Of a DNA stretch of 35,441 nucleotides, positions 8,275 to 24,996 are shown piece after piece. The DNA is taken from IMG/VR virus record IMGVR_UViG_2529293216_000013. One strand, 5' to 3'. The position numbers and the translations under genes are program-made. How positions within the stretch are numbered: position 1 is the first letter of the stretch; each line of letters starts with the position of its first letter. The notes under the pieces are model-generated. The model ran no database searches and was not told where the DNA came from. It saw only the letters and a list, made by a program, of their open reading frames with translations. This DNA comes from a virus. Lineage: Duplodnaviria; Heunggongvirae; Uroviricota; Caudoviricetes.

Positions 8275-8613
8275 CTATTTCCCTGAATTTACGACGAAAC
8301 TGTTCGAGCGGGCTGAAGCACTCATGCTCATAGCCTTCGCGGAGGTAGATAACCCGTTGTGTTTCCGGTTCCCAACGAATGACTCTGACGGGCACTCCGT
8401 AGTGATCTTTGAACCAGCGGTTAACTTGTCGCAAAGGACTGTCTCCTTTTGCCTGTTGAAATCACCCACAGCCCACTCTGCAAAGCTGTGGGTTACAATT
8501 TCCCTGTCACCTGGTACATTCACTGCATAGCAATACTCCACCTTCGCTTTTCCACCCGGTACAGGAAGTGCAATCAGTTGCGAGCGACGGTAGTGTGTTG
8601 TTAAACTGTTCAT
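8275..8613 (-). CDS. Hypothetical ORF between CII-like and O-like genes; frame ambiguous
   Basis: 112 aa ORF in one frame; a second minus-strand frame (8255..8434) has AAGGAG plus TTG start and a more protein-like product ([58 protein letters not shown]) ending in overlap with the O start. Confidence 0.3.
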
Positions 8614-9161
8614 GCGTTAGTTTCTCCACAGTCACGACACGCCACGGCGCCCGGAGCTGCACACTCGCGGGCGTCATTACTTTCTGAAATGCAAAAAATT
8701 TTGTAGACCAGTGCTGCATGCTCCTGCAGCTTCGAAATTGAGAGGTACAGCTCGTCGTTAATTGCTGTCTTCTCATGCGGTTCCACTACACCGTCTTCAA
8801 TTGCTGAACGAATCTGTTTTGAATAACTGCCGATCTGTTCAATGACCTCCAGCAGGCGTTGGTTGATATCGGCGTTGTCCACATCCTCGACATCAGGAAG
8901 AGACACAAAGACGCCATTTGCAGACTGCGCCACAGCGTCAGCAATGAAGTGAGTTCCACCAGCACGTTGCAAAATCATTGCCCATCCCAGCGGGAAAATC
9001 TGATCGCCATCGGCACGAAGGCGGTTAAATAATGCGTTCTCTGTTACATCCAGCCAGTCAGCAGCTTCAGCGTACCCCCCCGGCAACGCTGCGATAGTTT
9101 TTCTGACAGCTTTCACGTACCACTCAGGCTGTTTTTCTACTTTCCAGTGATGCTTACCCAC
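8610..9161 (-). CDS. CII/YdaT-like prophage regulatory protein (putative)
   Basis: 183 aa; immediately downstream of the Cro-like gene with overlapping start/stop; family assignment from memory only. Confidence 0.4.
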
Positions 9162-9414
9162 GGTTCACCTCCTGTTCCTGTGGTTTAAACCCATTCTGGT
9201 TTTGGCTAGATTGAAAACGTGCCGGATAAAGAATCTGCATTTCGCTGACTTCACCCTTAAAAAAATTGGCTAAACGTTCTGCAAGCTCGATAGATGGAAT
9301 CTGCTCCAGCCTCTCAATACGACTCAACGTCGCTGGATTGACTTGAACACCCGCAGCAACATGCTGCAAAGTGAAACCATGCGCCTTACGCACATTTCGT
9401 AATGGTGATTGCAT
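9154..9414 (-). CDS. Cro-like HTH repressor (XRE family)
   Basis: 86 aa; HTH GFTLQHVAAGVQVNPATLSRIERLEQIPSIELAERLANFF; divergent from cI across an operator-rich 97 bp spacer. Confidence 0.65.
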   Translation of the reverse strand: MQSPLRNVRKAHGFTLQHVAAGVQVNPATLSRIERLEQIPSIELAERLANFFKGEVSEMQILYPARFQSSQNQNGFKPQEQEVNRG

Positions 9415-9424
9415 ACGCCCTCCA

Positions 9425-9495
9425 AATATTGCGCGTTATGCATGTTATTTCACGCAATTATTTTGCGCAAGTTGATTTGCTTATCACGCAATAAA
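9425..9495. promoter_or_regulatory. Right operator/promoter region (OR-like) between cro-like and cI
   Basis: Repeated half-site motifs ATTGCGCG, CACGCAAT (twice) and palindromic TTGCGCAA in the divergent intergenic region. Confidence 0.5.
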
Positions 9496-9511
9496 GAAAT
9501 GTAATAAACGC

Positions 9512-10204
9512 ATGAACATAGGAAACCGAGTCAGACAACTTCGCCAAGCGAAGAACATGAAAATCGCCGATCTCGCTGAAGCGATAGGAGTAGATGCGGC
9601 GAACATCTCGCGCTTAGAAACGGGTAAGCAAAAACAATTTACCGAACAAACACTGAGTAATATTGCCAAGAGCTTAGGTGTTGATATTGCTGATCTCTTT
9701 ACCTCTGCCCACAAAAGTAATACTGTATATAAAAACAGTAATAATGAGGATGTTGCGCAGGTGAAGGATGTGTTCCGTATTGAAATGCTGGATATCAGTG
9801 CCAGTGCGGGAAATGGCCTTATCCAGGGCGGTGATGTCATTGATGTGATTCATGCCATCGAATACAGAACTGATAATGCTGTATCAATGTTCGGCGGACG
9901 ACCAGCCAATCACATCAAAGTTATCAACGTTCGTGGGGACAGTATGTGTCCAACCATTGAGCCAGGAGATCTCATCTTCGTTGATGTCAGCATCAATCAG
10001 TTTGATGGTGATGGTATATATGTCTTTGGTTTTGATGACAAAATATACGTTAAAAGACTTCAAATGATTCCTGACAAACTGCTGGTGATTTCTGATAACC
10101 AGATTTACCGTGAATGGGGAATTACTAGCGAAAACGAACACCGATTCATGGTCTTTGGAAAGGTCTTAATCAGTCAGTCGCAAACCCTTAAGAGACATAA
10201 TTAA
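9512..10204 (+). CDS. cI: CI-type prophage repressor (HTH plus S24 LexA-like autopeptidase domain)
   Basis: 230 aa; N-terminal HTH (MKIADLAEAIGVDAANISRLETGK); C-terminal S24 motifs VRGDSMCPTIEPGDLIFVD and YVKRL (Ser/Lys dyad). Confidence 0.85.
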   Translation: MNIGNRVRQLRQAKNMKIADLAEAIGVDAANISRLETGKQKQFTEQTLSNIAKSLGVDIADLFTSAHKSNTVYKNSNNEDVAQVKDVFRIEMLDISASAGNGLIQGGDVIDVIHAIEYRTDNAVSMFGGRPANHIKVINVRGDSMCPTIEPGDLIFVDVSINQFDGDGIYVFGFDDKIYVKRLQMIPDKLLVISDNQIYREWGITSENEHRFMVFGKVLISQSQTLKRHN

Positions 10205-10223
10205 CCTCAATATCCCATCCATC

Positions 10224-10248
10224 GGCCACCGAAAGGTGGCTTTTTATT
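10224..10248 (+). terminator. Rho-independent terminator downstream of cI
   Basis: GGCCACC-gaaa-GGTGGC hairpin followed by TTTTTATT. Confidence 0.65.
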
Positions 10249-10256
10249 ACCTATAA

Positions 10257-10295
10257 ATTTGCATATCTCGCAAATACCACTTGCATATCTCGCAA
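10257..10295. promoter_or_regulatory. Left operator-like tandem dyads (OL-like)
   Basis: Two copies of TTGCATATCTCGCAA (inverted TTGC...GCAA arms), sharing the TCxCGCAA core with the OR-region sites. Confidence 0.45.
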
Positions 10296-10502
10296 TTTAA
10301 TTTTATCTTTTATTCCAGACCAACTACAGGATTACAACAAAATCTGGTTGCAACACGGTGCATGTGTCGTAAGCAGTCAGTAAATGTCAAAAACGAACAG
10401 GCAGGACGCCCACGAAGTAGCCGCCTGGGGCATATGAAGTCCAGGATGATTCGTTGAGTCATGTTGTGCCACTAGGCACTCATGTTAAAGCAGGTGTATG
10501 AA

Positions 10503-10778
10503 ATGAAAGTCCAGATTTTAAACAATAACTGTGAAGTCGTTTGGTCATACGACATAGCCGCCCCTGTAGATCAGAGCGGCGATAGCTGGACCAATGGGAA
10601 ACATCAGATTATGGCTGGAGTTGTGTTCTCTTTACGCCGTGCTTTAGAACAGGCTGAAGTCTTTCCATCAGACCCTGAATGGAAATGGCCTTTTTCTATT
10701 TGTCCAAATTCGGAGAGTACATTTCAGAAAATTGGTCAGAAAGTCGCACTCGAAGAGCATCAGCCAACTGTTTCCTGA
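10503..10778 (+). CDS. Hypothetical protein downstream of cI (rex-position cargo?)
   Basis: ORF with AGGTG Shine-Dalgarno before ATG at 10503; no recognisable motif; 3' end overlaps a convergent ORF. Confidence 0.3.
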   Translation: MKVQILNNNCEVVWSYDIAAPVDQSGDSWTNGKHQIMAGVVFSLRRALEQAEVFPSDPEWKWPFSICPNSESTFQKIGQKVALEEHQPTVS

Positions 10779-10941
10779 TTTTTTCAGGTAACTCGTCGGC
10801 ATCGCAGAAACAACAACGCTCGATCATGTTGAAAGCCGATTCGTAGAACTGTTTTTGCTGAGTGTCGCTGAGACAGGAAAAGAGCGACGTTACGATGATT
10901 TTATTAATTGCATTATCAAGTTCTTTTTCATCAAAAGTCAT
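10696..10941 (-). CDS. Hypothetical small protein (81 aa)
   Basis: Protein-like composition (MTFDEKELDNAINKII...); convergent 83 bp overlap with the previous ORF, so one of the two may be spurious. Confidence 0.3.
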   Translation of the reverse strand: MTFDEKELDNAINKIIVTSLFSCLSDTQQKQFYESAFNMIERCCFCDADELPEKIRKQLADALRVRLSDQFSEMYSPNLDK

Positions 10942-11442
10942 TTGATTTTCCTTTTATGTATACGGGCTTAAAAGGATACCACCGAGCCTGAAGTGGTGAA
11001 AAGACAGGCACATAACAGCTAAGTATTTTCAACCAGAGAGAATCCTTAGCGTTGTGGTGAATGCGGCTCAGCGCACGCGGGTTAAGGTTGAGGCTGACAG
11101 TCGACCTTCTGTGGATACCCACCCGCCTGGTGTGCAACCTTCGCCAGGCACCGGGAGGCACCCGGCACCACAACTTTATGCTGTGTGTAGTCTTAGCGGT
11201 ACCAGCTTGTACCCTTGCTTCCGGCTGGTACCGTCCTTTTTACAAAACAGAGAAGAGCATCACCGGACGACGGGCTCATAACCCAATCCATCCGGGCGGC
11301 TGCCACCGCAGGTGTATAGCGCGGCGATTTTTTTGATACCGATTTGCATTTCATTTGATACCGCTGAAAAACGCCGATACGCAACTTATTTGATACTAAA
11401 TCGGCGCTTTTCTTTTGAGTTTTAGAATGAGTTTTTAAGCGC

Positions 11443-12180
11443 TCATTCACTCTCTTTCAAACCAGTTTTAACTGTTTGTGGTTTTGGGTAAGGCTGGACT
11501 TTGAATAGCTTTGTGTTGAGGCGTTTTCTGGCCCTCTTGTTCAGAAACCGGATGTAACGAAACTGTCGGAACTTATGAACACTGGCTCTGTCAATATTAG
11601 CCCTCAGATGTTCACCTCGTTGTCCGCCTCGTTTAATGGCATTCCTGCAAATCTCGTGATACCACTCGCCATCAAGTTCATAGAATATTGATTCATGGCT
11701 GCCTACATAATCAAAATTGCTTGCCTGATACACGACACCAAGACAGCCACAACGCTCATCTGCAAACGACTGAACCCACTGTACCTGCGGATAAAGCTGC
11801 CTGATTAGCTTGAGCGCGTAACTGATTGCCCTTGATTCGGAGTTTCTCGGCATACAGTCATGCAGCCATAGCCGGTTAAGCTCCATATATTCTCGGTTCT
11901 GCGTACCCGTTACGACGCGTGCACCACTGTTTGGGTTAAGGGCGTAACCCCATTGCATTACGCCAACAAGTTCCCGTTCTGAAAATATGCCCAGATGAAG
12001 GTAGGAGTTATTTACGAAACGGTGGCTGTAATGTTTATTGACGATGACCAGTCTGGCCAGCCAGCAACTTATTGTCTCAACCCGCAACTCACGGGAGCCA
12101 TAACCAACGATATTGTCGTTATAGCGAATAAGTTCAGGCGTGCTGATGATTCGGGATGTGACTTGCTTTCTGTTCCCCAC
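11443..12180 (-). CDS. mom: Mom-like DNA modification protein (GNAT-fold acyltransferase family), putative
   Basis: 245 aa; GNAT-like C-terminal signature [12 protein letters not shown]; start overlapped by a Com-like zinc-finger gene exactly as in phage Mu com/mom. Confidence 0.5.
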
Positions 12181-12334
12181 GACAGGATTTCCTTGTGTAT
12201 GTGGGGTGCTCTGTGGCGCTCGGAGATGTGATTTGATTGAGGGTTTTACAGCGCGGACATTTTACTTCCAGATAACTGAAACTGGCCCGTGCCAGTAGCT
12301 TATTGCAGTGTCGGCACCGTATGTTTCGATACAT
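12134..12334 (-). CDS. com: Com-like zinc-finger translational activator
   Basis: [34 protein letters not shown]...EHPT resembles Mu Com (IRCKNCNKLL...IRCPRCK...EHPT) as recalled; AGGAGG upstream of the internal ATG; 3' end overlaps mom start. Confidence 0.6.
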
Positions 12335-12364
12335 GACCGCATAACCTCCTGCTTTGTTGTTGAT

Positions 12365-12400
12365 GCCTTTCTCATGCAATCGATCGACAAAAACGATCGA
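12365..12400. promoter_or_regulatory. GATC-rich putative com/mom promoter region
   Basis: Two CGATCG sites (GATC at 12371..12374 and 12384..12387) plus TCGAT repeats within about 30 bp upstream of com. Confidence 0.3.
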
Positions 12401-12448
12401 TTCGATTTGTTTAATTGATACAACAAATAGATTGAAAAGTCATCAACA

Positions 12449-12913
12449 ATGATTCAGGGAGGTGATTATTTACTTAAAGAAAACGAAGAGTTAGGTGGTG
12501 AAAACGATCATAAAATGATCATTTTATTGACTTTTTATACAGTGAAGGTAGGATCACGCGTATATGTAGTATGTTTCAAATCAACAGGATACTACATAAA
12601 AGTGAAACCCAGCATAGCTGGAACTATGCTGGGTCAATCTGTAAAAACTTGCATCAATGCTTTACTTCGAGCTCGTGGCGTATCCTATGATATTCCCCGG
12701 TCTCCTGTAAAGCAGAGATGCATAAAAAGGAGATCTTTATCATGGATGAAAGAGCCTGTTTGCCCTGCCTGTAAGACTCCCTTACAGCTCATCTATCGCC
12801 GTTCTCGATCTCAAAATGGCAAGACATACAAACCCAAAAATGCTTCCTGTTTCAGGATGCTGATATGTCCTGCCTGTTCTCCCAGGAGGGAAAATACACA
12901 AAACGTGCATTAA
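12449..12913 (+). CDS. Hypothetical protein with C-terminal double CPAC zinc-ribbon motif
   Basis: ...VCPACKTPLQ...(26 aa)...ICPACSP; N-terminal part is low-complexity and may not be coding. Confidence 0.25.
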   Translation: MIQGGDYLLKENEELGGENDHKMIILLTFYTVKVGSRVYVVCFKSTGYYIKVKPSIAGTMLGQSVKTCINALLRARGVSYDIPRSPVKQRCIKRRSLSWMKEPVCPACKTPLQLIYRRSRSQNGKTYKPKNASCFRMLICPACSPRRENTQNVH

Positions 12914-12951
12914 CAAACTCACCCGGCAGGGAAACCTGCCGGTCGGTATTG

Positions 12952-13197
12952 TTACATCATAGTACCGTCAGTTCCGGGCTGAACCGGCTCTGGTTGCTCT
13001 ACGGGTTGAGGATCATTTTCCGTGCTGTTTTCAGCCGGAGAACGGCCAACCATTCGGGCCAGCACTTCATCAACATATGCGTCGATTTGTGCCTCAAAAT
13101 CCTTGCGAACCTGCGCCTTCAGCACGCGGTTCACTTCTTCAGAATAAAGTGCCTGTTTGACAAGCTCTTCAGTAACCGTGCCTTTAATCTCTGGCAT
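12952..13197 (-). CDS. Hypothetical acidic small protein (81 aa)
   Basis: AAGGAG Shine-Dalgarno 7 nt before ATG; acidic, Pro/Glu-rich C-terminus. Confidence 0.4.
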   Translation of the reverse strand: MPEIKGTVTEELVKQALYSEEVNRVLKAQVRKDFEAQIDAYVDEVLARMVGRSPAENSTENDPQPVEQPEPVQPGTDGTMM

Positions 13198-13232
13198 GAA
13201 TATTCTCCTTTTGCAGGTATATTGCCCCGTTA

Positions 13233-13415
13233 TCAGAGCGGGGTCGGGTCGTTTGGGGATGACGGTGCCTGTGCTGTTTTACTGAGTTTTTCAGCTGCCG
13301 CATCATCAATTTTACGGCGAATATAATTTCTGATGACCTTATAACCACCGCTCACCAGATATAACGCACTGACCACAGCGCAGAAATAAAGCAGCATTGT
13401 ATGAACGAATGTCAT
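13233..13415 (-). CDS. Hypothetical small membrane protein (60 aa, one TM)
   Basis: Hydrophobic segment MLLYFCAVVSALYLVSGG followed by basic stretch. Confidence 0.35.
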   Translation of the reverse strand: MTFVHTMLLYFCAVVSALYLVSGGYKVIRNYIRRKIDDAAAEKLSKTAQAPSSPNDPTPL

Positions 13416-13561
13416 ATAACCTTACCTTTGATATTGACTACATAATTCGTTATCGGGTAAAAACATCGAAGCGACTGATAACCACTCCTTCGGGAGTATT
13501 TTTATTTTCCTTTATGGGTTAGGTAGCTCCCGCCAGCCATATCATGACCGGCGGGATTTTT

Positions 13562-15601
13562 TTATTCTGTTACCGCTTTTTTCACTTCCACCACAATGCT
13601 GTCAATCAGCACCGGGTAAGTTGCATTTTTTGTGATATCCGTTACGCGGAGTTTGTCCACCGGGAAAGTTCCTACTGGTGACTGCGTCAGGGTAAACGCG
13701 GCACCATCCTGACCATCAATAACCGGAATAACCTGAAGGCTGTTATTTCCTGCAAAACGGAAGGCCAGCGTATGCCATTCATTATCAAATGCACCAAAGG
13801 TTCCCAGTTTCTGGTTATTTGTTGCCACTTTTGCATTGTGGTACATCACATTCAGGTCTTTTGCGTCTGTCTGGATGTAGAACGATGCCAGCAGATTATT
13901 CCCTGCATCCCCTGTCAGGGTGACACCCTGCGGCAGAGAGGAAACCGGCCAGTAAAGCCCCATGACATACTGGTTTGCCACCAGGTCGCCAGGTACTTTA
14001 AAACGACAACTGATTAAACCACCATTTTTCAGCAGTTCAGCACCAGTACCGGCATCATGATCCAGATACCAGGATGATTTACCTGTTTCCTTGGTCAGTT
14101 TCATTGCCTTACCACCTGTGCCTCCTGCATCACTGATAATTTCAGCTTTACCGCCAGCCGGCTCCCAGCCCTGGGCTTTCAGATTTCCTTCTGACTCACT
14201 GACACGATAAGACAGCAGTGTTGTGGTTACTGCTTCAGTTTCTGAAGGTGACGGCACTGGTGCTTCAGTTTCAGAAGATGGAACATCGGCTTTTACTGTG
14301 GTTCGCCCCGCATGAGTCAGAACTGCCGTGGCCAGACGGTCGGAAATAATCCCACGACGTGCCCATGAACTGAAATGGCTGGCCCGGTCCGCAGATGTCC
14401 AGGTGGCGGCACTGTTACGCCACGTTGAGCCGTAATAACCAATGGATTCAATATCCGGGTCTTCTGCCGGATTGTTGGTGGGTACATTCGCGTCATTTTC
14501 ATCTGTCATTAATGGAACGAAATGAATGTTTTTATCTGTTTTGTTTTTGTAGCCGCCATAGATTGCCTGGTATGCCGGTTCATTTTTCTGTTTCCAGAAA
14601 TACGTGGTATCGCCACAAATCCACGGAACGCCAGCAGCACTGCCACCGGTACACTGTTCCGCCTGTTCAGCCAGGTCTGCGCGGAATTTTTCCACCATCG
14701 CCAGAAACAGCGCGGAATGCTCCGTCGGCTTCGCATCAATATCAAACTCGCCCTGCATCCACACCACAGCAAGCAGGCGGTTTTTCGGGTTCTTCGCCAG
14801 TGCCGCTTTTGTCCGGCTGATTAAGTCCTTATACAGCGGCTTATCCACACCCCAGCGGGCTGAGTCCTCTGAAGCACCCGTGCTGTCACTGTACGTGCCG
14901 TCAGCACCCGCCGTGAATGCAGAACCACCACGGCAGCAGGGAACCAGCAGAATCCCCGCATCTGCCGGAATAAACGGCAGCAGTTTTTTGGCAATGTGAA
15001 GCCCCTGACCCACGGTGCCATATTGCCCTTTAGCCACATCCGCTTTCGGGTGATTTTTTCCACTCATATCCTGCACATCATGCAGACAGTGGTCGGCCAG
15101 AATGATGTCGTTATACTGACAGGCTTTACCTCCCGGCGTGACTGTACTGCGACGGGCTAACTGCATAATACGCGGTTCGGGGCGGTCATATGTCTCCGGC
15201 AGTGGCAGACCTTCACCGTAAGCCATACCGTTTGACTGACCAGCAAGAACCACCACGTAATACCAGGAAGGGGAGCTGGAAGCAGTTTCATTTCCTGACG
15301 GACGGGTATGTGTTTCAGCATTATCCCAGTCTGACGGTTCAGCAGTACCGGCAACATCAGCACTTAACGGAATGACCGCACCAATACCCGCTCCGGTAAT
15401 TTCCACACTCGGATCACCGGATACTGGCCTTACCCACAGGCAATCCCGTGTATTAAAACTGATGAGACAGTCAGCAAATGTCATTCCTCCTTTTGTTTCG
15501 GCCGGAGGAAAGGGAGCCTCAAGAAATGCCGCTGTACCACCGGAAACTTTAACAGTAAAGTTTCCGGGCATTGATGATAGTTGAACCCATTTGGACGTCA
15601 T
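13562..15601 (-). CDS. Prophage sialate O-acetylesterase-like protein (NanS-p-like, SASA/SGNH esterase core)
   Basis: 679 aa; motif VVVLAGQSNGMAYGEG (GQSN catalytic Ser motif); size and architecture resemble NanS-p paralogs of E. coli prophages. Confidence 0.65.
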   Translation of the reverse strand: MTSKWVQLSSMPGNFTVKVSGGTAAFLEAPFPPAETKGGMTFADCLISFNTRDCLWVRPVSGDPSVEITGAGIGAVIPLSADVAGTAEPSDWDNAETHTRPSGNETASSSPSWYYVVVLAGQSNGMAYGEGLPLPETYDRPEPRIMQLARRSTVTPGGKACQYNDIILADHCLHDVQDMSGKNHPKADVAKGQYGTVGQGLHIAKKLLPFIPADAGILLVPCCRGGSAFTAGADGTYSDSTGASEDSARWGVDKPLYKDLISRTKAALAKNPKNRLLAVVWMQGEFDIDAKPTEHSALFLAMVEKFRADLAEQAEQCTGGSAAGVPWICGDTTYFWKQKNEPAYQAIYGGYKNKTDKNIHFVPLMTDENDANVPTNNPAEDPDIESIGYYGSTWRNSAATWTSADRASHFSSWARRGIISDRLATAVLTHAGRTTVKADVPSSETEAPVPSPSETEAVTTTLLSYRVSESEGNLKAQGWEPAGGKAEIISDAGGTGGKAMKLTKETGKSSWYLDHDAGTGAELLKNGGLISCRFKVPGDLVANQYVMGLYWPVSSLPQGVTLTGDAGNNLLASFYIQTDAKDLNVMYHNAKVATNNQKLGTFGAFDNEWHTLAFRFAGNNSLQVIPVIDGQDGAAFTLTQSPVGTFPVDKLRVTDITKNATYPVLIDSIVVEVKKAVTE

Positions 15602-15700
15602 AATAATCAGCCTGTTCCTGAATAAACTGAATTATCATATCCACAGACCGATAAACGCCATTTTGCGTTAATTCAGTAAAGGCCCAACAAAGAGAGCGTC

Positions 15701-16261
15701 TTATTTTTCCGAAACGCTCGCAGGATAATAACGATAAAGGGTTGAAAGGCCGATATCAAAAATAAGTGCCACCTGTCTTCGACTGACACCCCCGGCCAGT
15801 AAACGCCCGACCTGCTCGTATTGTTCCTGCGTGAGACGACGGGGTCTGCCGCCGGTTCGTCCCCTTTCACGGGCAGCTGCAAGACCAGCCCGTGTCCGTT
15901 CGACAATTAATTCACGCTCCATTTCTGCCAGCGCACCCATTATGTGAAAAAAGAAGCGCCCCATGGGGGTTGACGTATCAATGTTGTCAGTAAGACTACG
16001 AAAATTTATCCCCTGTTGCTGTAATTCATCTGTCAGCGCAACAAGGTGGCGCATACTGCGCCCCAGCCTGTCCAGTTTCCAGACCATCAGTGTGTCACCG
16101 GGTTTTAGTTTCTTCAGTGCCCGCTTCAGTCCCGGCCGCTGTGTCGTTTTACCACTCATTTTATCTTCAAAAATCTGCTCACATCCTGCACATTCCAGCG
16201 CATTTCTTTGTAAACCTGTGTTCTGGTCATTTGTTGATACGCGTATATAGCCAATCAGCAT
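15701..16261 (-). CDS. pin: Serine recombinase DNA invertase (Pin/Hin/Gin/Cin family), copy 1
   Basis: 186 aa; MLIGYIRVSTNDQNTGLQRNALECAGCEQIFEDK...GRSMRHL...C-terminal HTH; close match to e14 Pin as recalled. Confidence 0.9.
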   Translation of the reverse strand: MLIGYIRVSTNDQNTGLQRNALECAGCEQIFEDKMSGKTTQRPGLKRALKKLKPGDTLMVWKLDRLGRSMRHLVALTDELQQQGINFRSLTDNIDTSTPMGRFFFHIMGALAEMERELIVERTRAGLAAARERGRTGGRPRRLTQEQYEQVGRLLAGGVSRRQVALIFDIGLSTLYRYYPASVSEK

Positions 16262-16687
16262 GTATTTACCTTCCTTAAAAAGAGGTGGAAAGGCCTTTTA
16301 AAGCAGATATACGGCATCCCTGAAACCTTCGGTTTACGGGATACTGTAAACAGGGCCGCGAATGCCCTGCCATCGAACGGAGCGGCTGTTGCAGCGAATA
16401 AACTCGCCACTCCAAGAAATATTAATGGTGTCCCATTTGACGGAACGCAGGATATAAATATTACATCGGGGATGACGCAGTCTGTGGCTGACTCACGTTA
16501 TGTTCAAAGCATTCGAAGAGGTTCAAGGTCAACGATTGGAATGCAATATAATATTTTTGAGGTTCCTGACGGATGCGTACTTACAGGGCTTGATGTCGCT
16601 GGTGATGGTAATGCAACGGTAACCGCATATTATCGACCTGTTCAGTTTCTGATAGATGGTTCGTGGAAAACAGCTTCCAGCGCATAA
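16262..16687 (+). CDS. Tail fibre variable C-terminal segment (Sv), 5'-truncated (no constant part)
   Basis: Open frame from 16238 without start codon; ...LATPRNINGVPFDGTQDINITSGMTQSVADSRYVQ...AYYRPVQFLIDGSWKTASSA. Confidence 0.55.
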   Translation, partial: VFTFLKKRWKGLLKQIYGIPETFGLRDTVNRAANALPSNGAAVAANKLATPRNINGVPFDGTQDINITSGMTQSVADSRYVQSIRRGSRSTIGMQYNIFEVPDGCVLTGLDVAGDGNATVTAYYRPVQFLIDGSWKTASSA

Positions 16688-17715
16688 AAGTGCAGTAGTT
16701 CAAAAAACAGATTATCTGAATAAATATATGATGATTTTGTCTTTTCAACAAAAACAAGGTGAAATAATGGAGCTTATTAACGTAAAACGATATTACCCGG
16801 AACACAAACCCTATGGTGAGGATGTTCAGTATTTCCAGAGTGAGGACGGAAGGGATTTTTATGAATCTATCCCGCTTTTCACAAAGAAATACAAACTCTG
16901 TATTTCGCCTGTAACGGGTATTATCTGCTCTGTTGCTGAAGATGTCTCTGCTTTATATCCGGCAGGTTTTACTGTTGTTGAAGTGGACGAACTGCCGGAA
17001 GGTGTGAATATTGACGGTAACTGGCAGTTTTCTGATGGCCTGATATCAAAGGTGCCGGTAAACTGGAAGACGGTTGCTGAAAAGCGCCGCTCATCGCTGC
17101 TCCAGGAAGCCAACGAAACTGTGGATGACTGGAAAACGGAATTAAAACTGGACATGATTAGCGATGAAAATAAATTACAGCTGACGCGCTGGATGGCGTA
17201 TATCCGACAGCTTAAAGAAATGCACTTTAATGATATTGCCAGTGAGGGGCATTACCAGGCGATTCCCTGGCCGGAAAAACCGGAATAATTCAGAGGGTGC
17301 ATTCAGCACCCTTTTCTGTGGTTTACACTGAACTTACCGTTCTCCAGGCATTATTAATATAAATCTGAACCGGGCGATAATAGACCCCACCGATATTGTC
17401 CGCAGACCGGGAGCCGGTTTCCTGCACGTTAATTCCGGAAAGCATACAACCGGAAGGTGCGCTGTAATTCCATGACATTTCATTGCCTCCGGGTGAATGA
17501 TAGCTCTGTGCTCCAAGCTGAACATTCTGTACATACCGGCCATCTGCGGTTGACTGCGTCATTCCTGACGTGATGTTGATATCCAGCGTTCCGTCAAAAG
17601 GAACACCATTAATATTTCTTGGGGTGGCGAGTCTGTTTGCTGCCACGGCGGTTCCACCCGATGGCAGGGCATCAGCAGCCTTATTTACCGTTTCCCGTAA
17701 ACCAACGTTTAAGAA
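16318..17715. mobile_element. Invertible tail-fibre segment (G/P-segment-like) between inverted crossover sites
   Basis: gix/cix-like sites AAACCTTCGGTTTACGGGA near 16320..16343 and inverted partial copy near 17692..17712; both lie inside tail-fibre reading frames at the conserved ...GLR(D/E)TVN(R/K)AA(N/D)ALP... junction. Confidence 0.55.
16767..17288 (+). CDS. Tail fibre assembly protein (Tfa/U-like)
   Basis: Start MELINVKRYYPEHKP with Shine-Dalgarno; C-terminus ...LTRWMAYIRQLKEMHFNDIASEGHYQAIPWPEKPE typical of Tfa chaperones. Confidence 0.7.
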   Translation: MELINVKRYYPEHKPYGEDVQYFQSEDGRDFYESIPLFTKKYKLCISPVTGIICSVAEDVSALYPAGFTVVEVDELPEGVNIDGNWQFSDGLISKVPVNWKTVAEKRRSSLLQEANETVDDWKTELKLDMISDENKLQLTRWMAYIRQLKEMHFNDIASEGHYQAIPWPEKPE

Positions 17716-17745
17716 AATGCAGAGATTATGGCTAACTGGCATCAT
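17323..17745 (-). CDS. Alternative tail fibre variable C-terminal segment (Sv')
   Basis: Shares ...LATPRNINGVPFDGTLDINITSGMTQSTADGRYVQ... with Sv, then diverges; ends ...VYYRPVQIYINNAWRTVSSV. Confidence 0.55.
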   Translation of the reverse strand: MMPVSHNLCIFLNVGLRETVNKAADALPSGGTAVAANRLATPRNINGVPFDGTLDINITSGMTQSTADGRYVQNVQLGAQSYHSPGGNEMSWNYSAPSGCMLSGINVQETGSRSADNIGGVYYRPVQIYINNAWRTVSSV

Positions 17746-17772
17746 CCCCGGTTTTTACTCAGGGGAATGCTC

Positions 17773-18327
17773 ATGCTTATTGGCTATGTCCGCGTATCAA
17801 CAAATAACCAGAATACGGAATTACAGCGTAATGCGCTGGAGTGTGCAGGATGTGAGCTGATTTTTGAAGACAAGATAAGCGGTACAAAGTCCGACAGACC
17901 AGGACTGAAAAAGCTGCTCAGGACATTATCGGCAGGTGACACGCTGGTGGTCTGGAAACTGGACCGACTGGGGCGCAGTATGCGGCATCTTGTCGTGCTG
18001 GTGGAGGAGTTGCGCGAACGAGGCATCAACTTTCGTAGTCTGACGGATTCAATTGATACCAGTACCCCAATGGGGCGCTTTTTCTTTCATGTGATGGGTG
18101 CCCTGGCTGAAATGGAGCGTGAACTGATTGTTGAACGAACAAAAGCTGGACTGGAAGCAGCTCGCGCACAGGGACGAATTGGTGGACGTCGTCCCAAACT
18201 TACACCAGAACAATGGGCGCAGGCCGGGCGATTAATTGCATCAGGCGTTCCTCGCCAAAAGGTGGCGATCATCTATGATGTTGGTATATCGACACTGTAT
18301 AAGAAGTTTCCGGTCGGAGATAAATGA
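17773..18327 (+). CDS. pin: Serine recombinase DNA invertase (Pin family), copy 2
   Basis: Start MLIGYVRVSTNNQNTELQRNALECAGCELIFEDK...; roughly 80% identical to copy 1, opposite orientation. Confidence 0.9.
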   Translation: MLIGYVRVSTNNQNTELQRNALECAGCELIFEDKISGTKSDRPGLKKLLRTLSAGDTLVVWKLDRLGRSMRHLVVLVEELRERGINFRSLTDSIDTSTPMGRFFFHVMGALAEMERELIVERTKAGLEAARAQGRIGGRRPKLTPEQWAQAGRLIASGVPRQKVAIIYDVGISTLYKKFPVGDK

Positions 18328-18387
18328 AACCGTAGCACGTCGTATGCAAGAAGATCGTGCTGCGGTTTATGCTTATCACTTAAAGAC

Positions 18388-19257
<870 letters not shown>

Positions 19258-19337
19258 CTAAGTCTTTGAATTTACATAGTACAAAAAAGATACTTTTCCT
19301 CATAATGTGAATTAATTTTATGTTTCGTTTGATGATT

Positions 19338-19403
19338 GGACCGGTCTCGAAAACCGGAGTAGGGGCAACTCTACCGGGGGGGCAAATCCCCCTCTCTCCG
19401 CCA
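19338..19403 (+). tRNA. Degenerate 3' fragment of tRNA-Ser (serU-like, anticodon CGA); probable prophage att scar, not a functional tRNA
   Basis: GGACCGGTCTCGAAAACCGGAGTAGGGGCAACTCTACCGGGGGGGCAAATCCCCCTCTCTCCGCCA matches the tRNA-Ser(CGA) 3' two-thirds as recalled, with a damaged T-loop (GGGCAAATCC instead of GGTTCAAATCC); 5' acceptor/D-arm absent. Confidence 0.6.
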
Positions 19404-19976
19404 CTTTATCAATGACTTATCTCCCGACTTCCCGCCTTGCTTTTCCTAAACAGAACAATCGTAGAATATTCTTGAAGGGTTAGATCGTCACTGTTTTCTG
19501 TTCGATACTGTGACATTCAGCACTTGATTCGCTATGGATCTGACAGGAAGGTTTCGAGCGAAAATCTGCAGTTATTCAGTCGTTTTCTTATCGGTCACCA
19601 TTATTCTTTTAGACATTGATCCTACAAAGCTGCCGCAAAGTTGGTGGTGGGAACTGAAGTTGCGTAGAGAAGGGGTCAATACCCGGAGGCAAACATGGGC
19701 TGGCAAAAGTGTAGCGGTATTAGGCGCAGCTATTTAGCCTAGTTATGTTTTATGAAAACTTGATATCATATAAGTGTCTTACTTATTGGCTGTAAATAAG
19801 TTTTTCCTAAGGAATTGTTTCTTGAGTATCATTTGTAACTGTAACGGAATTTATAATCCTTTGCTTTATTGTTACGGTATTTTTTATCACACCCTATTTT
19901 TAGTGGTTTTTTATACTGAAGTTTGGCAAAGTGAACTTTATATACATATACTTCATCCTGGTTTCAGTTAAATTGG

Positions 19977-20729
19977 GTGGATGATATGGCAACTACATGT
20001 TCAGTTATATTGATTTTGGAGTCCTTTGATGTTTATTTCGGAAAAGAGAGTGTGTTTCTGGAGAGAGGTTCATCTGTACTTGTCGACTCTAGCTCTAGAG
20101 ATTTTTTCCTGACATATCCTGAAAGAGTGATAGTGGCGGATTTTGGCGCTGAGTTTATTAGTCGCTATTTGAAAGCTAATAACTTAAGGGATATTTCTGA
20201 TTGTAGGGAATATCCATCTTATTTAAAAATAAACTTTGCTGACTTCAGTTTAATTAAAGGATTAATTAGTTGGGCTAATCACTGTGCTGAATACATAGAA
20301 ATTTTTGATGAGTCTATTGCTTTTACATGTCTCTCTGCATTTTCTTCTGAAAAACAATTTGGAGTATTTCTGTTTGGATGTTTGAAAAGCACAGGGGCTA
20401 AAGTTAAAACGATTATTCATACGGATTTATCTGCACCATGGCGTCTTAAGGATATATCATCAAGATTATATCTCAGCGAAAGTTTACTAAAGAGGAAATT
20501 GAAAGAAGAGGGGGTATCATTCAGTAAGATCATACTTGATGAGAGGATGCAAATGGCTGAATATTTACTCAGCACTCGTTGTTATCCTATTAGTAAAGTA
20601 GCTAAGGTCTGTGGTTATGCCAGTGTCTCATACTTTACTTATGTATTTAGACGTTATTTTGGTGTTTCTCCAAGTCAATACTCTCAGAGGAGTTCAGAAA
20701 GTAAAATTCTTACTCACCAGGGAATCTGA
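19977..20729 (+). CDS. AraC-family transcriptional regulator (AppY-like, AT-rich)
   Basis: 250 aa; C-terminal dual HTH WRLKDISSRLYLSESLLKRKLKEEGVSFSKIILDERMQMAEYLL...VAKVCGYASVSYFTYVFRRYFGVSPSQY resembles AppY as recalled. Confidence 0.7.
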   Translation: MDDMATTCSVILILESFDVYFGKESVFLERGSSVLVDSSSRDFFLTYPERVIVADFGAEFISRYLKANNLRDISDCREYPSYLKINFADFSLIKGLISWANHCAEYIEIFDESIAFTCLSAFSSEKQFGVFLFGCLKSTGAKVKTIIHTDLSAPWRLKDISSRLYLSESLLKRKLKEEGVSFSKIILDERMQMAEYLLSTRCYPISKVAKVCGYASVSYFTYVFRRYFGVSPSQYSQRSSESKILTHQGI

Positions 20730-20770
20730 TCATTGTTCTTGCCCCCTTATTTCCAGACAGGGGGTGTATC

Positions 20771-21214
20771 TTAAGTTAACGTTACCCGCTGACGTCGATA
20801 TTCTCGCGGAGAGCGATAACCCAACGCACTGTGCGGATGGTTTTCATTGTAATGTTCGATCGCCACTGCAAGATTATGCAATGCCGTTCTTACATTCGGT
20901 TTCGGCATGAACGCGATATAGTCTTCCTTCATCGTTTTCACGAACCTTTCTGCAATTCCATTACTCTGAGGACTGCTGATTGCCGTTGTGCAGGGCTCCA
21001 GATTCAACTCTCTGGCGAACTGCCGTGTTTCATGCGCTCTATACGCTGAACCGTTATCTGTCAGCCACTGGATGGACTGTTCCGGTACTTTATCGCCAAA
21101 GCGTTTTTCTATCGCTCCTAACATGACATCCTGCACTGTCGCTTTATCGTAACCTCCCGTGCTTGCGGCCCAGTCTATGGCTTCACGATCGCAACAGTCC
21201 AGGGCGATTCATCT
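20771..21214 (-). mobile_element. IS3-family (IS2-like) transposase remnant: C-terminal DDE-domain portion only
   Basis: ...[50 protein letters not shown]...[14 protein letters not shown] matches IS2 OrfB C-terminus; no ATG, frame closed upstream by a stop near 21215. Confidence 0.7.
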
Positions 21215-21483
21215 GGGCCAATCCTCGCTCATAACAGGCATTCACTTCAGTCATGGCAGAAAGGTATGCATGCTGGAGAAGTCGTGAAAGAAAAGAAGAC
21301 TGCTGCGCCGTTTGTCGTCACGTTTATCTTCATTGGCTATGCAAGTCGTAATACAAGGTGGGACAAAACTGAGACACATAAGGCCTCGCAATGGCTTGCA
21401 AGGCTTTACATGTTTTGATGTGGTGGGACGTGTGAGCGCAGTGTTGATGGGGTAATGCTTTGAATTAGAAGCGGATTCTTATA

Positions 21484-21529
21484 ATTCGTAATGCGAAGGT
21501 CGTAGGTTCGACTCCTATTATCGGCACCA
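21484..21529 (+). tRNA. 3' fragment (about 46 nt) of tRNA-Thr (thrW-like); attL core of the P4-like element
   Basis: ATTCGTAATGCGAAGGTCGTAGGTTCGACTCCTATTATCGGCACCA matches the thrW 3' half as recalled; upstream sequence does not match the tRNA 5' half. Confidence 0.65.
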
Positions 21530-21691
21530 TCTCAACTTCCTCAAACGTCCGTATTAGTCCATAAAATCTCTGATTTATAACATTTTTTATTCTTTTAAGT
21601 CCATAGTAGTCCGTAACCATCCAGTAGAATCCGGTACTGAATGTGTATAGGATTGTGTATATGTTCCTGTTCGGTCTGGATTCCTATACAC

Positions 21692-22873
21692 ATGCCTTTA
21701 AACGATATGCAGATTCGCCGCGCTAAGCCTGAAGCTAAAGCCTATACATTTGGAGATGGGCTAGGGTTGTCATTACTTATAGAACCTAATGGAAGCAAGA
21801 GTTGGCGGTTCCGCTATCGCTATGCCGGCAAACCCAAAATGATCTCGCTTGGTGTTTACCCAACGATCACCCTTGCCGATGCTCGTTCCCGTCGTGATGA
21901 AGCTCGAAAACTTGTGGCAGAAGGAAAGAACCCTAGTGAGGTTCGAAAAGAGCAAAAGCTAGCTATGCAAACAGAGTCAGAGAACGCCTTCGAAAAGATA
22001 GCCAGAGAGTGGCATCAACTTAAATCTGCTAAATGGTCGGCGGGATATGCATCAGACATCATGGAAGCGTTTAAGAACGACATTTTTCCTTATGTCGGAA
22101 CAAGGCCTGTGGGAGAGATTAAACCGCTAGAGCTGCTGAACGTTCTGCGTAAAATTGAGAAACGTGGTGCGTTGGAGAAAATGCGCAAAGTGCGGCAGCG
22201 TTGCTCCGAAGTGTTTCGCTACGCAATTGCAACGGGTAGGGCGGAGTACAATCCTGCGGCTGATCTCTCCAGCGCTCTCGAAGTACACCAATCCAATCAT
22301 TTCCCATTCCTAAAAGCTGATGAGATACCTGATTTTCTACGTGCCTTAGAGGGTTACTCCGGGAGTAAGCTTGTCCAGATAGCCACGAAATTACTGATGA
22401 TTACGGGTGTGAGAACCATCGAATTACGCGCGGCATTATGGCAAGAATTTGATCTGGATAACGCTATTTGGGAAATTCCTGCTGAAAGGATGAAAATGCG
22501 TAGGCCACATCTTGTGCCCTTATCATCTCAAGCGGTAGATTTACTCAATGAACTCAAGATCATGACAGGGAACTATCGTTATGTTTTTCCAGGGCGGAAC
22601 GATCCGAATAGGCCAATGAGCGAAGCGAGTATAAATCAAGCCATTAAGCGTATTGGGTATGGAGGAAAAGTCACTGGACATGGTTTTCGTCATACCCTTT
22701 CTACAATCCTGCATGAGCAAGGTTTTGAGAGTGCTTGGATTGAAATCCAGTTGGCTCATGTAGATAAAAATTCTATTAGGGGGACTTATAACCATGCTCA
22801 ATATTTTAGTGGAAGGAAGTCTATGATGGACTGGTACAGTAATTTGATATTTGAAAGACTAAAAAGGAGTTAA
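21692..22873 (+). CDS. int: P4-type tyrosine integrase
   Basis: N-terminus MPLNDMQIRRAKPEAKAYTFGDGLGLSLLIEPNGSKSWRFRYRYAGK...; C-terminal catalytic region HGFRHT...; adjacent to tRNA fragment. Confidence 0.85.
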   Translation: MPLNDMQIRRAKPEAKAYTFGDGLGLSLLIEPNGSKSWRFRYRYAGKPKMISLGVYPTITLADARSRRDEARKLVAEGKNPSEVRKEQKLAMQTESENAFEKIAREWHQLKSAKWSAGYASDIMEAFKNDIFPYVGTRPVGEIKPLELLNVLRKIEKRGALEKMRKVRQRCSEVFRYAIATGRAEYNPAADLSSALEVHQSNHFPFLKADEIPDFLRALEGYSGSKLVQIATKLLMITGVRTIELRAALWQEFDLDNAIWEIPAERMKMRRPHLVPLSSQAVDLLNELKIMTGNYRYVFPGRNDPNRPMSEASINQAIKRIGYGGKVTGHGFRHTLSTILHEQGFESAWIEIQLAHVDKNSIRGTYNHAQYFSGRKSMMDWYSNLIFERLKRS

Positions 22874-22876
22874 TTT

Positions 22877-23293
22877 GTGTCTCAACCACTTTCGGAAATA
22901 TTGACATGGGATGATGAACAATGGGAGGTATTTGTCCATGATTGGCTTATTGTCTGTAAATCAGATGATTACCCGTGGAGCGAACGTTTGGGAGGAGCTG
23001 GAGATAAAGGTAGAGACGTTGTTGGATATAAATCGGATCCTAACGTAGAAGGTTATTCTTGGGATAATTATCAATGCAAACTGTACAAAAAAAGTTTAGG
23101 GTTCTCTGATGTTGTAGTTGAGTTTGGAAAACTTATCTATTTTACTCTGAATGGTGATTATCCCATCCCTCAGAAGTACTTTTTTGTGGCACCCTATGAT
23201 TTATCTACTACATTTTCTAATTTATTGAAAAATAAAAACGAGCTTAAAAAAGCAGTCCTTGATTCATGGGATTCAGCAATTTCAAAAAAATAA
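22877..23293 (+). CDS. Mrr-like PD-(D/E)xK nuclease domain protein, 5' segment of candidate defence effector (LmuA-like); frame breaks in A7 tract
   Basis: GTG start with AAAAAGGAG Shine-Dalgarno 4 nt after int stop; motif GGAGDKGRDVVGY...YQCKLYKK resembles Mrr catalytic core GDGGIDG...QCKRYK; about 28% GC. Confidence 0.5.
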   Translation: MSQPLSEILTWDDEQWEVFVHDWLIVCKSDDYPWSERLGGAGDKGRDVVGYKSDPNVEGYSWDNYQCKLYKKSLGFSDVVVEFGKLIYFTLNGDYPIPQKYFFVAPYDLSTTFSNLLKNKNELKKAVLDSWDSAISKK

Positions 23294-24966: not shown

Positions 24967-24996
24967 AAAAATCAAATTGCAAATATTTATGAGGAA

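Follow-up and report, generated by a model that had tools for sequence, protein, structure and literature searches.

In a 35,441-nucleotide stretch of caudoviral DNA (the window; IMG/VR record IMGVR_UViG_2529293216_000013), two genes resembling com and mom of phage Mu are located close to a lambda-like repressor gene, which raises the question of how a Mu-type DNA-modification operon came to be placed beside a lambdoid immunity region. The first-pass annotation had proposed a com-mom module embedded in a lambdoid prophage by module exchange. The homology and coupling of the two genes stand, but recombination of a module into a lambdoid genome does not. The locus is best read as the com-mom operon of an Sp18-type Mu-like prophage, placed by transposition into a resident prophage and then by inversion between a gix and a pix site (probability about 0.9). 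Both open reading frames of the pair are present on the minus strand, and the Com-like zinc-finger frame overlaps the start of a 245-aa protein, as had been described:

11443..12180, minus strand: mom, predicted Mom-family adenine-modifying enzyme (245 aa, GTG start)
12134..12334, minus strand: com, predicted zinc-ribbon translational activator of mom (66 aa)

The com open reading frame extends over 12134..12379, and translation from the likely ATG at 12334 gives a 66-aa product that contains the stretches VKCPRCK and EHPT. The com stop codon (12134-12136) lies inside mom. The resulting overlap of 47 nt (50 nt in Mu, counted from the homologous GTG) and the Mu-type start agree with the overlapping, apparently translationally coupled arrangement that had been suggested.

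The window Mom matches the Pfam family Mom (PF25680) over all of its profile (positions 1-202 of 202; E = 4e-77, 258.9 bits, cut-off 27.1) and the PHROGs family "Mom-like DNA modification protein" (1.4e-83). Com matches Zn_ribbon_Com (PF10122; E = 3.2e-12, 46.1 bits, cut-off 22.9) and "gpCom control of modification" (1.4e-12), so that both proteins exceed the curated Pfam cut-offs. Mom residues 5-233 align with the structure of Mu Mom (PDB 8bv8; E = 4.5e-124), and identity to Mu Mom is 79.2% by alignment and 79.5% by tblastn to Mu. The structure of Mu Mom has been solved and has a GNAT fold (PMC13219725); the mechanism, solved in 2026, and the essential residues, among them R111, S124, D149 and R151, are described in the same paper. 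All ten important residues of Mu Mom (Y28, W48, H58, Y59, R111, S124, D149, R151, Y159 and W181, Mu numbering) are kept, their equivalents in the window protein including R103, S116, D141, R143, W40, H50, Y51, Y151 and W173. The HTH-like insertion of Mu Mom (~175-209) aligns without gaps. The GNAT-like signature noted in the first-pass annotation thus holds, because the fold is inherited by homology from 8bv8 at 79% identity. Com is 44% identical to Mu Com, in which Cys6, Cys9, Cys26 and Cys29 are the zinc ligands (PMC3299994); all four are kept, as C7, C10, C26 and C29. The proposed relationship to both Mu proteins is therefore borne out by strong alignments (Mom 79%, Com 44%). Loci whose DNA is 100% identical to that of mom carry the annotation WP_000528251.1 ("protein mom"), and com in these identical loci is annotated WP_001310452.1 ("Com family"). 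Judged by their sequences, both genes are real, intact copies of the anti-restriction pair com/mom of phage Mu, and no evidence contradicting this identification was found in the analysis.

A Com-binding hairpin in the translation-initiation region of mom had been anticipated, and both a candidate motif and a hairpin were found there:

12205..12221, minus strand: predicted Com target on the mRNA, GAGCGCCACAGAGCACC, with CC-ACA-GAG at 12216..12209, directly 5' of the inhibitory hairpin
12175..12206, minus strand: predicted translation-inhibition hairpin, in which CCCCAC (12206-12201) pairs with GUGGGG (12180-12175)

SELEX has yielded the motif GAGNNCC(N)2-3GAGNNCC and the loop motif CC(N)2-3GAG for Com (PMC6483171). 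The CC-ACA-GAG of the window fits both, and its position is homologous to that of GCCUGCGAGCAU in Mu, in which the CC(N)3GAG motif likewise stands directly 5' of the GUG hairpin. The GUG start of mom lies in the 3' arm of the hairpin and an AAGGA Shine-Dalgarno sequence in its loop; the hairpin is present in the minimum-free-energy and centroid folds alike, and Mu RNA folds in the same way. The hairpin loop is 20 nt in the window as against 11 nt in Mu, and the outer pair is C-G as against U-A. A first covariation alignment was uninformative, with Mu and D108 identical over the leader region and pAEv1818 devoid of com; 11 distinct com loci from IMG/VR were used afterwards. The Com-target motif is kept in these 11 diverse loci, which differ in their downstream genes, and all alignment cells of the hairpin (100%) are paired, with a single compensatory pair (C-G/U-A). 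The stem of the Com target is weaker than that of Mu, with two invariant pairs and a mismatched third pair across the 11 loci. Support for the leader RNA comes mainly from conservation, although this is confounded in part by the need to encode EHPT in Com and Met-Gly in the target. An Rfam scan of 11250..12550 matched no curated family to the mom leader and returned two sub-threshold chance matches (a snoRNA and a group II intron fragment).

A candidate control region is located upstream of com:

12378..12402, strand not assigned: upstream control region with a 9-bp inverted repeat, AATCGATCG-N7-CGATCGATT, and two GATC sites (12382-85 and 12395-98)

In alignment with Mu, the GATC pair falls on the GATC cluster that precedes com, and the region presumably has the Dam/OxyR role that is established for Mu. 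A scan for sigma-70 promoters upstream of com found none, as is expected for an activator-dependent promoter, and a by-eye search of the same region for a Mu C-type operator (TTAT-N6-ATAA) found none. Mu has three GATC sites as against two in the window, where 27 nt fewer separate the GATC cluster from the com ATG. In view of these differences and of the two negative searches, the promoter architecture may differ from that of Mu.

By homology with Mu, transcription of the operon would take place late in lytic growth, from a weak promoter that lies upstream of com, depends on an activator and is presumably gated by Dam methylation at the two GATC sites. The first protein to be translated would be Com, whose zinc ribbon has four cysteines; it would bind CC-ACA-GAG just 5' of the hairpin that hides the mom GUG and Shine-Dalgarno sequence, and open the hairpin. 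Mom, as a GNAT-fold enzyme, would then move glycine from Gly-tRNA(Gly) onto the N6 position of adenines in double-stranded DNA, and the glycine adduct would rearrange to N6-carbamoylmethyl-adenine, which would block many restriction enzymes.

The two genes lie at the end of a 6.4-kb fragment (11315..17709), which represents the right end of a transposable Mu-like prophage of the Sp18 type. This fragment contains the following features:

11315..11442, minus strand: right end (attR) of the Mu-like element, ending ...GCGCTATA-3' at 11315
12449..15601, both strands: cargo block between com and the invertase gene, from Pfam and the annotation of identical loci
15701..16261, minus strand: gin-like serine DNA invertase gene of the Mu-like element (Resolvase and HTH_7 domains)
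16316..17691, strand not assigned: gixR (16316-16342) and the invertible tail-fibre (G-like) segment, with alternative tail-fibre C-termini and an assembly gene

Three direct GTATCAAA repeats (11332-39, 11354-61 and 11389-96) are present near the right end. The element ends at 11315: four other genomic copies share the sequence exactly inward from this position and have unrelated flanks, and the resident prophage without the insertion reads through the site (empty site versus five copies). A Mu-like TG...CA terminus at 11313 was considered and ruled out, since the five copies compared place the end at 11315 (TATAGCG...). The cargo block encodes a 154-aa hypothetical protein (plus strand), a DUF826 protein, a DUF1378 protein and a 679-aa SASA esterase/DUF6645 protein (all three on the minus strand). 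The gin-like invertase is 76% identical to Mu Gin and 73% identical to the neighbouring PinE of the resident prophage. The gene order is that of the Mu right end (tail fibre, invertible segment, gin, com, mom, attR), with the cargo inserted between gin and com. The G-like segment occurs flipped in strain War.

The com-mom region was detected in 233 of 5426 complete E. coli genomes, with varying flanking genes, and 150 genomes hold at least 80% of a 7-kb block-spanning query in one piece; the copies listed align only to the Mu-like part of the query (91% of it), at 99.9-100% identity. Sp18-type Mu-like prophages, which occupy many unrelated chromosomal sites, have a right end that matches 11315..17709 with 100% identity. 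Identical copies, in which Mom and Com are annotated, span many O157, O26 and other STEC genomes. The window element and the Sp18-type prophage thus appear to be the same element. Sp18 has been reported to encode Mom and its regulator at the position equivalent to that in Mu (PMC3299994), and Sp18-type phages have been described as transposable and often inserted in prophages (PMC10132054, PMC7430833, PMC2669165).

The DNA on both sides of this fragment belongs to a single resident prophage:

1..11314, minus strand: early and lysis region of the resident tRNA-Thr prophage (lambdoid early genes), inverted relative to pinE
17773..18327, plus strand: pinE, resident-prophage invertase gene beside pixR (Resolvase and HTH_7 domains; annotated pinE in FRIK2455)

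Positions 1..11314 are 100% identical to FRIK2455 309891->298577, and the two flanks (1..11315 and 17684..35441) match a single FRIK2455 prophage region at 100% identity, but in opposite orientations. The same resident prophage occurs without the Mu-like block in many O157 genomes. Its remnants vary in O157, with a 20.3-kb gap in FRIK2455 and a 6.4-kb gap in F1273. The cI-like repressor that had been pointed out does lie close by: a protein with S24 peptidase and HTH domains is encoded at 9512..10204 (plus strand), at a distance of 1.1 kb from where the Mu-like DNA ends.

The other boundary of the fragment is a recombined invertase site:

17692..17717, plus strand: hybrid invertase crossover site, TTCCCGTAAACC-AA-CGTTTAAGAAAA, with a left half from the Mu-like gixL and a right half from the resident-prophage pixR

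In a three-way alignment, the window agrees with the Mu-like sequence as far as 17709, and with the resident prophage from 17699 onwards. The two parents share 11 bp (17699-17709, AAACCAACGTT), and there is no homology outside the 26-bp site. The cores of gixL and pixR are identical (AA), and the junction is a precise half-site hybrid. By its sequence, the site belongs to the Din family of crossover sites, having the 26-bp 12-2-12 layout, an AAACC-NN-GGTTT-like core and an adjoining invertase gene; pinE lies 56 bp away. Both the gin-like invertase and PinE (73% mutual identity) are encoded in the window, and Din-family invertases complement one another. The block is thus a 6.4-kb Mu-like right end bounded by a transposon terminus at 11315 and a hybrid gix/pix site; the earlier picture of com and mom embedded by module exchange and flanked on both sides by lambdoid DNA through mosaic joints is not borne out.

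According to the preferred reading, a Mu-like phage would have inserted itself by transposition in the early-left part of the resident tRNA-Thr prophage, with its right end now at 11315. A Gin/Pin-family invertase would then have recombined gixL with the inversely oriented pixR beside the resident pinE, inverting a block composed of the G segment, gin, the cargo, com, mom, attR and the resident prophage DNA up to pixR. This inversion would have detached the mom end from the remaining ~32 kb of the Mu-like phage. Com and mom would stand beside a lambda-like repressor because a transposable phage jumped into the resident prophage and an inversion then split it. The predicted reciprocal junction would read ...CCGCTTCTCCCAAACC-AA-CGTTATCGATAAAAGCGCC..., joined to the constant part of the Mu-like tail fibre, and on the opposite strand ...TTATCGATAACG-TT-GGTTTGGGAGAAGCGG..., the reverse complement of CCGCTTCTCCCAAACC-AA-CGTTATCGATAA; either of the two invertases may have acted. 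Homologous recombination at the right junction was ruled out, since identity outside the 26-bp site is at the random level, and an inversion by replicative transposition between two Mu copies was ruled out by the position of the junction at gix/pix rather than at a Mu end. Counting against the inversion, the reciprocal junction, the Mu-like left end, the transposase genes and the 5-bp target duplication lie beyond the window. The window arrangement was not found among the 5426 complete E. coli genomes, so the model is drawn from a single sequence.

Three other explanations were weighed. Acquisition of a com-mom cassette by a lambdoid phage through modular (mosaic) exchange, giving that phage its own anti-restriction function, would account for the 1.1-kb distance to the cI-like repressor and has a precedent in the mom of Aeromonas phage pAEv1818 (70% identity), which is located in a lambdoid context between a Q antiterminator gene and a holin gene. 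However, complete Mu-like prophages have a right end identical (100%) to the whole of 11315..17709, with gin, the G segment and the terminus included; the block is bounded by a transposon end on one side and a crossover site of the Din type on the other, not by recombination joints in lambdoid homology; and the resident prophage occurs without Mu-like DNA in many O157 genomes. Mosaic exchange is thereby hardly credible, being refuted in practice by the identical Mu-like copies, the hybrid site and the transposon end. It is also very improbable that the joins are assembly artefacts, produced by a chimeric contig in which the tRNA-Thr prophage was fused with a Mu-like prophage. STEC genomes rich in prophages are easily mis-assembled, and neither junction occurs in any complete E. 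coli genome of the collection; yet the 11 bp shared at 17699-17709 are too short to mislead an assembler, one join coincides exactly with the central dinucleotide of two genuine, inversely oriented invertase sites, as the enzymology predicts, and the other falls exactly at the transposon terminus.

The Mu-like DNA could also be a dead remnant that arose by a deletion, or by a rearrangement different from one gix x pix inversion; the remainder of the Mu-like phage would in that case be lost, and mom would lack its activator. The window shows no more than 6.4 kb of the element, whose left part lies outside it, and the resident-prophage remnants of O157 differ in size (20.3-kb gap in FRIK2455, 6.4-kb gap in F1273). 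The left flank is nevertheless inverted relative to the right flank in comparison with every reference, and a simple deletion therefore cannot explain the window. Moreover, gixL and pixR were inversely oriented, and an inversion is what serine invertases produce from two such sites. No mutations separate the fragment from intact copies, which indicates a recent event and also counts against a dead remnant. This explanation is considered unlikely.

Beyond the inversion itself, a tentative and rather unlikely extension is that the G segment of the Sp18 lineage is locked, since the gixL core is AA and gixR reads AAACC-TTC-GGTTT. The site compatible with gixL would then be the AA-core pix of a resident e14-like prophage, and invertase cross-talk of the transposable phage with resident prophages would produce recurrent, reversible large inversions. 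The orientation of the G segment is alike in 182 of ~185 close copies. If this were true, cross-talk inversions would split and re-join STEC prophages and switch the Mu-like phage, together with mom, between competent and crippled states.

The com-mom finding as originally put forward adds little that is new; the gene pair of the Sp18-type prophage is already known from RefSeq annotation and a mention in the literature. The inter-prophage inversion is a modestly interesting by-product of its analysis. For annotation, the locus illustrates that a gene adjoining a lambdoid immunity region need not belong to that phage, transposable Mu-like phages often being located within other prophages. For genome plasticity, the hybrid gix/pix site records a clean site-specific recombination between two prophages. 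For O157, homologous recombination between prophage repeats has been described (PMC7430833); the inversion mechanism here is a different one, and it would disable two prophages at once.

In comparison with known systems, the window operon has the gene order and GTG-GGx start of the Mu com-mom operon, which also lies at the extreme right end adjoining attR. In Mu the cargo block is absent and the gin-com spacer is 94 bp, whereas com and gin are separated by 3.2 kb in the window. The window element ends in ...TATA as against ...TTCA in Mu, and its GTATCAAA end repeats differ from the consensus bound by the Mu transposase MuA. The window Mom has a 12-aa C-terminal extension relative to Mu Mom; D108 Mom is also annotated at 245 aa. 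[quoted passage not shown] The Com-coupled gene of these phages encodes a DNA methyltransferase, whereas that of the window is a true mom by homology. In Com-coupled relatives from IMG/VR, the motif and hairpin are conserved as in the window. With Sp18 of E. coli O157:H7 Sakai and related Mu-like STEC prophages (for example Phi804-3 and the inserts in the Stx phages LC727881 and LC727895), the window element appears to be one and the same; the window differs from these prophages in keeping only the right 6.4 kb, cut at gixL and fused to the pixR of another prophage. The Din-family systems Mu Gin/gix, e14 Pin/pix, P1 Cin and Salmonella Hin use the same 12-2-12 AAACC-NN-GGTTT sites and, as here, have an invertase gene beside one site and alternative tail-fibre C-termini inside the segment. 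The partners in the present case would come from two prophages, 18-38 kb apart, and their recombination would yield, instead of a tail-fibre switch, a large inversion that splits both.

Over window positions 11315..17709 the sequence (7-kb query) matches complete Mu-like prophages at their right end with 100% identity, in the gene order attR, mom, com, a cargo block, a gin-like invertase gene, an invertible tail-fibre segment, and tail fibre and baseplate genes. The element is apparently the Sp18-type Mu-like phage carried by O157:H7 Sakai and other STEC. Phages of this type are reported to be transposable, packaged and frequently inserted within other prophages (PMC2669165, PMC7430833, PMC10132054), and genes for Mom and its regulator are stated to lie in Sp18 where Mu has them (PMC3299994). 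Among 5426 complete E. coli genomes, 233 carry the com-mom region, each beside different genes (nadB, fbpC, hyfE, terB, phage portal and J genes, and others).

11315: end of the Mu-like element, ...GCGCTATA-3' on the mom strand, from the window and four other copies compared with the uninterrupted target
Last 80 bp of the element: three direct GTATCAAA repeats, at the place expected for transposase-binding sites
12449..15601: 3.2-kb cargo block between com and the gin-like gene
15701..16261: gin-like invertase gene, product 76% identical to Mu Gin

The end repeats depart in sequence from the Mu consensus, and Mu has only a 94-bp spacer in place of the cargo. The cargo encodes a 154-aa hypothetical protein (plus strand, no Pfam match), DUF826, DUF1378 and a 679-aa SASA sialate-O-acetylesterase/DUF6645 protein. 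The DNA of the esterase gene is ~78-81% identical to a yjhS/NanS-p-like gene of Stx phages.

Positions 1..11315 are 100% identical to the early/lysis region of an O157:H7 tRNA-Thr prophage (e.g., FRIK2455 309891->298577) and also contain cro-like, replication, Dam-family methyltransferase, RusA, Q-like and lysis genes. Positions 17684..35441 are 100% identical to FRIK2455 330196->347953, which begins just upstream of pinE in the same prophage. These two resident flanks stand in opposite relative orientation.

9512..10204: S24/HTH repressor gene, early region of the resident prophage
17773..18327: pinE, product 73% identical to the gin-like protein
21641..22873: integrase gene of a P4-like satellite
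23266..24966: genes annotated 'ABC-three component system' and an AAA ATPase gene, directly after the satellite integrase
26563..28141, minus strand: ogr/delta, psu and sid-like gene of the satellite
30387..32777: alpha primase-helicase gene of the satellite

The P4-like satellite prophage (Sp2-type) occupies 21641..32777, and its genes at 23266..24966 apparently lie in a defence hotspot. A LEM-3-like GIY-YIG domain protein is encoded immediately downstream of pinE at the resident prophage edge (18388..19212, minus strand). The resident prophage has its own Dam-family N6-adenine methyltransferase (6180..6866, minus strand; PF05869, 5e-45), so two prophages have each contributed an adenine-modifying enzyme to the region, and the two enzymes are unrelated.

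At the right junction, a three-way alignment is decisive. The window tracks the Mu-like element as far as 17709 and agrees with the resident prophage from 17699 onwards, and the sole stretch common to both parents is 11 bp, AAACCAACGTT. The junction forms a composite invertase crossover site.

17692..17717: 26-bp hybrid crossover site, TTCCCGTAAACC-AA-CGTTTAAGAAAA

The left half of this site is that of gixL of the Mu-like element (TTCCCGTAAACC-AA-CGTTATCGATAA) and the right half is that of pixR of the resident prophage (TTCTCCCAAACC-AA-CGTTTAAGAAAA). No homology was found in this alignment outside the 26-bp site, which excludes RecA-type recombination and also makes it unlikely that the two parents were joined by an assembly artefact. 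The first-pass annotation had read the com-mom block as module exchange into a lambdoid phage. This reading is not borne out, as the block is the right end of Mu-like prophages and its right edge is the hybrid gix/pix site.

Worked back from the orientations, the arrangement is best explained (probability roughly 0.9 for this history together with the assignment of com-mom to an Sp18-type element) by transposition into the resident prophage followed by inversion between gixL and pixR. The Mu-like phage would have inserted with attR facing FRIK2455 position 298577, thereby placing gixL and pixR in inverted orientation, separated by ~18-38 kb (a distance that varies with how large the resident prophage is). 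A serine invertase acting on this pair could then have inverted precisely the block observed, and both candidate invertases (gin-like and pinE) are encoded in the window. The same arrangement was found in 0 of 5426 complete E. coli genomes. In the present genome the com-mom operon is detached from the left part of the Mu-like element, which comprises the repressor, transposase, late activator, and head and tail genes. Because attR would be flipped relative to attL, neither transposition nor packaging of the element in one piece should be possible until the inversion is reversed. Should the separated part provide the late activator in trans, Mom could still be produced.

In the common Sp18 lineage, to which the window belongs, gixL (17692..17717 region) has an AA core and gixR (16316-16342) reads AAACC-TTC-GGTTT (G-segment loci noted: window 16316..16342 and 17692..17717; compared loci L002 and L089). 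The gin gene and invertible segment are in one orientation in 182 of ~185 close E. coli copies, and in strain War a variant with a flipped segment carries a GA core at each gix site. The differing gixL and gixR cores, the near-uniform orientation and the flipped GA/GA variant suggest that in the common lineage the G segment may be locked, in which case gixL would still be compatible with the AA-core pixR.

The operon itself consists of two overlapping open reading frames on the minus strand at 11443..12400.

12134..12379, minus strand: ORF of com; most plausible start ATG at 12334, 66 aa
11443..12180, minus strand: mom; GTG start, 245 aa

A GGAGG sits 10 nt 5' of the com ATG, and the com stop codon lies 47 nt within mom. 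The first-pass annotation described the overlapping pair accurately, leaving the strand unstated, and was right in its gene calls and in the analogy to Mu. The 245-aa protein has a full-length match to Pfam Mom (PF25680) with 258.9 bits (cut-off, 27.1 bits). It also matches 'Mom-like DNA modification protein' in PHROGs (1.4e-83) and the Mu Mom crystal-structure sequence 8bv8 ('methylcarbamoylase mom'; E 4.5e-124, residues 5-233). Aligned globally, it is identical to Mu Mup55 at 183/231 positions (79.2%), and the HTH-like insertion is gap-free. Y28, W48, H58, Y59, R111, S124, D149, R151, Y159 and W181, the full set of residues reported essential or important in Mu Mom (PMC13219725), are all conserved. 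The 66-aa protein matches Zn_ribbon_Com (PF10122) with 46.1 bits (cut-off, 22.9 bits) and the PHROG 'gpCom control of modification'. It is 44% identical to Mu Com, and its four cysteines align with C6, C9, C26 and C29, the zinc ligands of Mu Com (PMC3299994). Likeness to Mu Com and Mom and the acyltransferase fold are both upheld by these matches and alignments. The annotations given in identical records are 'protein mom / Mom family adenine methylcarbamoylation protein' (WP_000528251.1) for the 245-aa protein and 'Com family' (WP_001310452.1) for the 66-aa protein. The pair are true Mom and Com family members of an already described phage type, and the operon, as read from its sequence, is intact.

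In Mu, according to Hattman's work (cited in PMC3299994), Dam methylation of the GATC sites prevents OxyR repression and the late activator C switches on the promoter upstream of com.

12378..12402: 9-bp inverted repeat with two GATC sites, upstream of com, aligning with the Mu GATC cluster

The upstream region in the window is 27 nt shorter than that of Mu and one GATC is missing. We infer a promoter for com; no sigma-70-like promoter was detectable upstream of the gene, as expected of an activator-dependent promoter, and no Mu-type C operator was seen there.

When the window is aligned with the Mu right end at the DNA level, the mom start GTG-GGG proves homologous to GTG-GGA of Mu; the crystallised Mu protein, Mom(delta10), is the longer annotated ORF minus its first 10 residues (PMC13219725). 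In the minimum-energy folds of the window and Mu alike, the mom GUG lies within the 3' arm of a hairpin.

12206-12201 and 12180-12175, minus strand: predicted mom hairpin, CCCCAC/GUGGGG, with an AAGGA Shine-Dalgarno in the loop
12221..12205, minus strand: predicted Com target GAGCGCCACAGAGCACC, directly 5' of the hairpin

The equivalent Mu hairpin is UCCCAC/GUGGGA, and Mu carries GCCUGCGAGCAU at the position of GAGCGCCACAGAGCACC. The latter is consistent with two published motifs for Com, GAGNNCC(N)2-3GAGNNCC from SELEX and CC(N)2-3GAG for the loop (PMC6483171). The check proposed in the first-pass annotation, for a Com-binding hairpin at the mom translation start, thereby gave a predicted motif and a hairpin over GUG. 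The Com-target stem is weaker than that of Mu, and only its two loop-closing pairs are invariant. Eighty com-encoding loci were collected from IMG/VR and 11 distinct leader sequences were examined; 11/11 keep CC-NNN-GAG and have the GUG start covered by the CCCCAC/GUGGGG hairpin, with 100% of cells paired (slid controls, 31-56%). The hairpin shows a single compensatory change, U-A in place of C-G as the outer pair of Mu and L081. The leader is strongly conserved. It shows minimal covariation, which coding constraints (EHPT in Com, Met-Gly in the target) confound.

The IMG/VR Com homologues are coupled to mom, a C5-cytosine methyltransferase, N6-adenine methyltransferases or a Dam-like enzyme, in agreement with PMC3299994. 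At five loci (L038, L046, L049, L076 and L084; com at 1501..~1700) the gene for a close Com homologue extends over the start of a C5-cytosine, N6-adenine or Dam-like methyltransferase gene. The leaders examined, those of L038, L046, L049 and L076, retain the CC-NNN-GAG motif and the CCCCAC/GUGGGG hairpin over GUG. Com and its leader thus resemble a portable cassette in which the enzyme can be swapped.

The com-mom gene pair is already known and of low interest, and the hybrid gix/pix junction, apparently an unreported and tidy case of cross-prophage invertase recombination, is worth a note. The window is not a case of mom in a lambdoid context, but such genes do exist. Aeromonas phage pAEv1818, a lambdoid-type siphovirus, carries mom (NC_070759.1 25511..26233, 70% identity) between the Q antiterminator and holin genes with no com upstream, which is the arrangement first proposed for the window.
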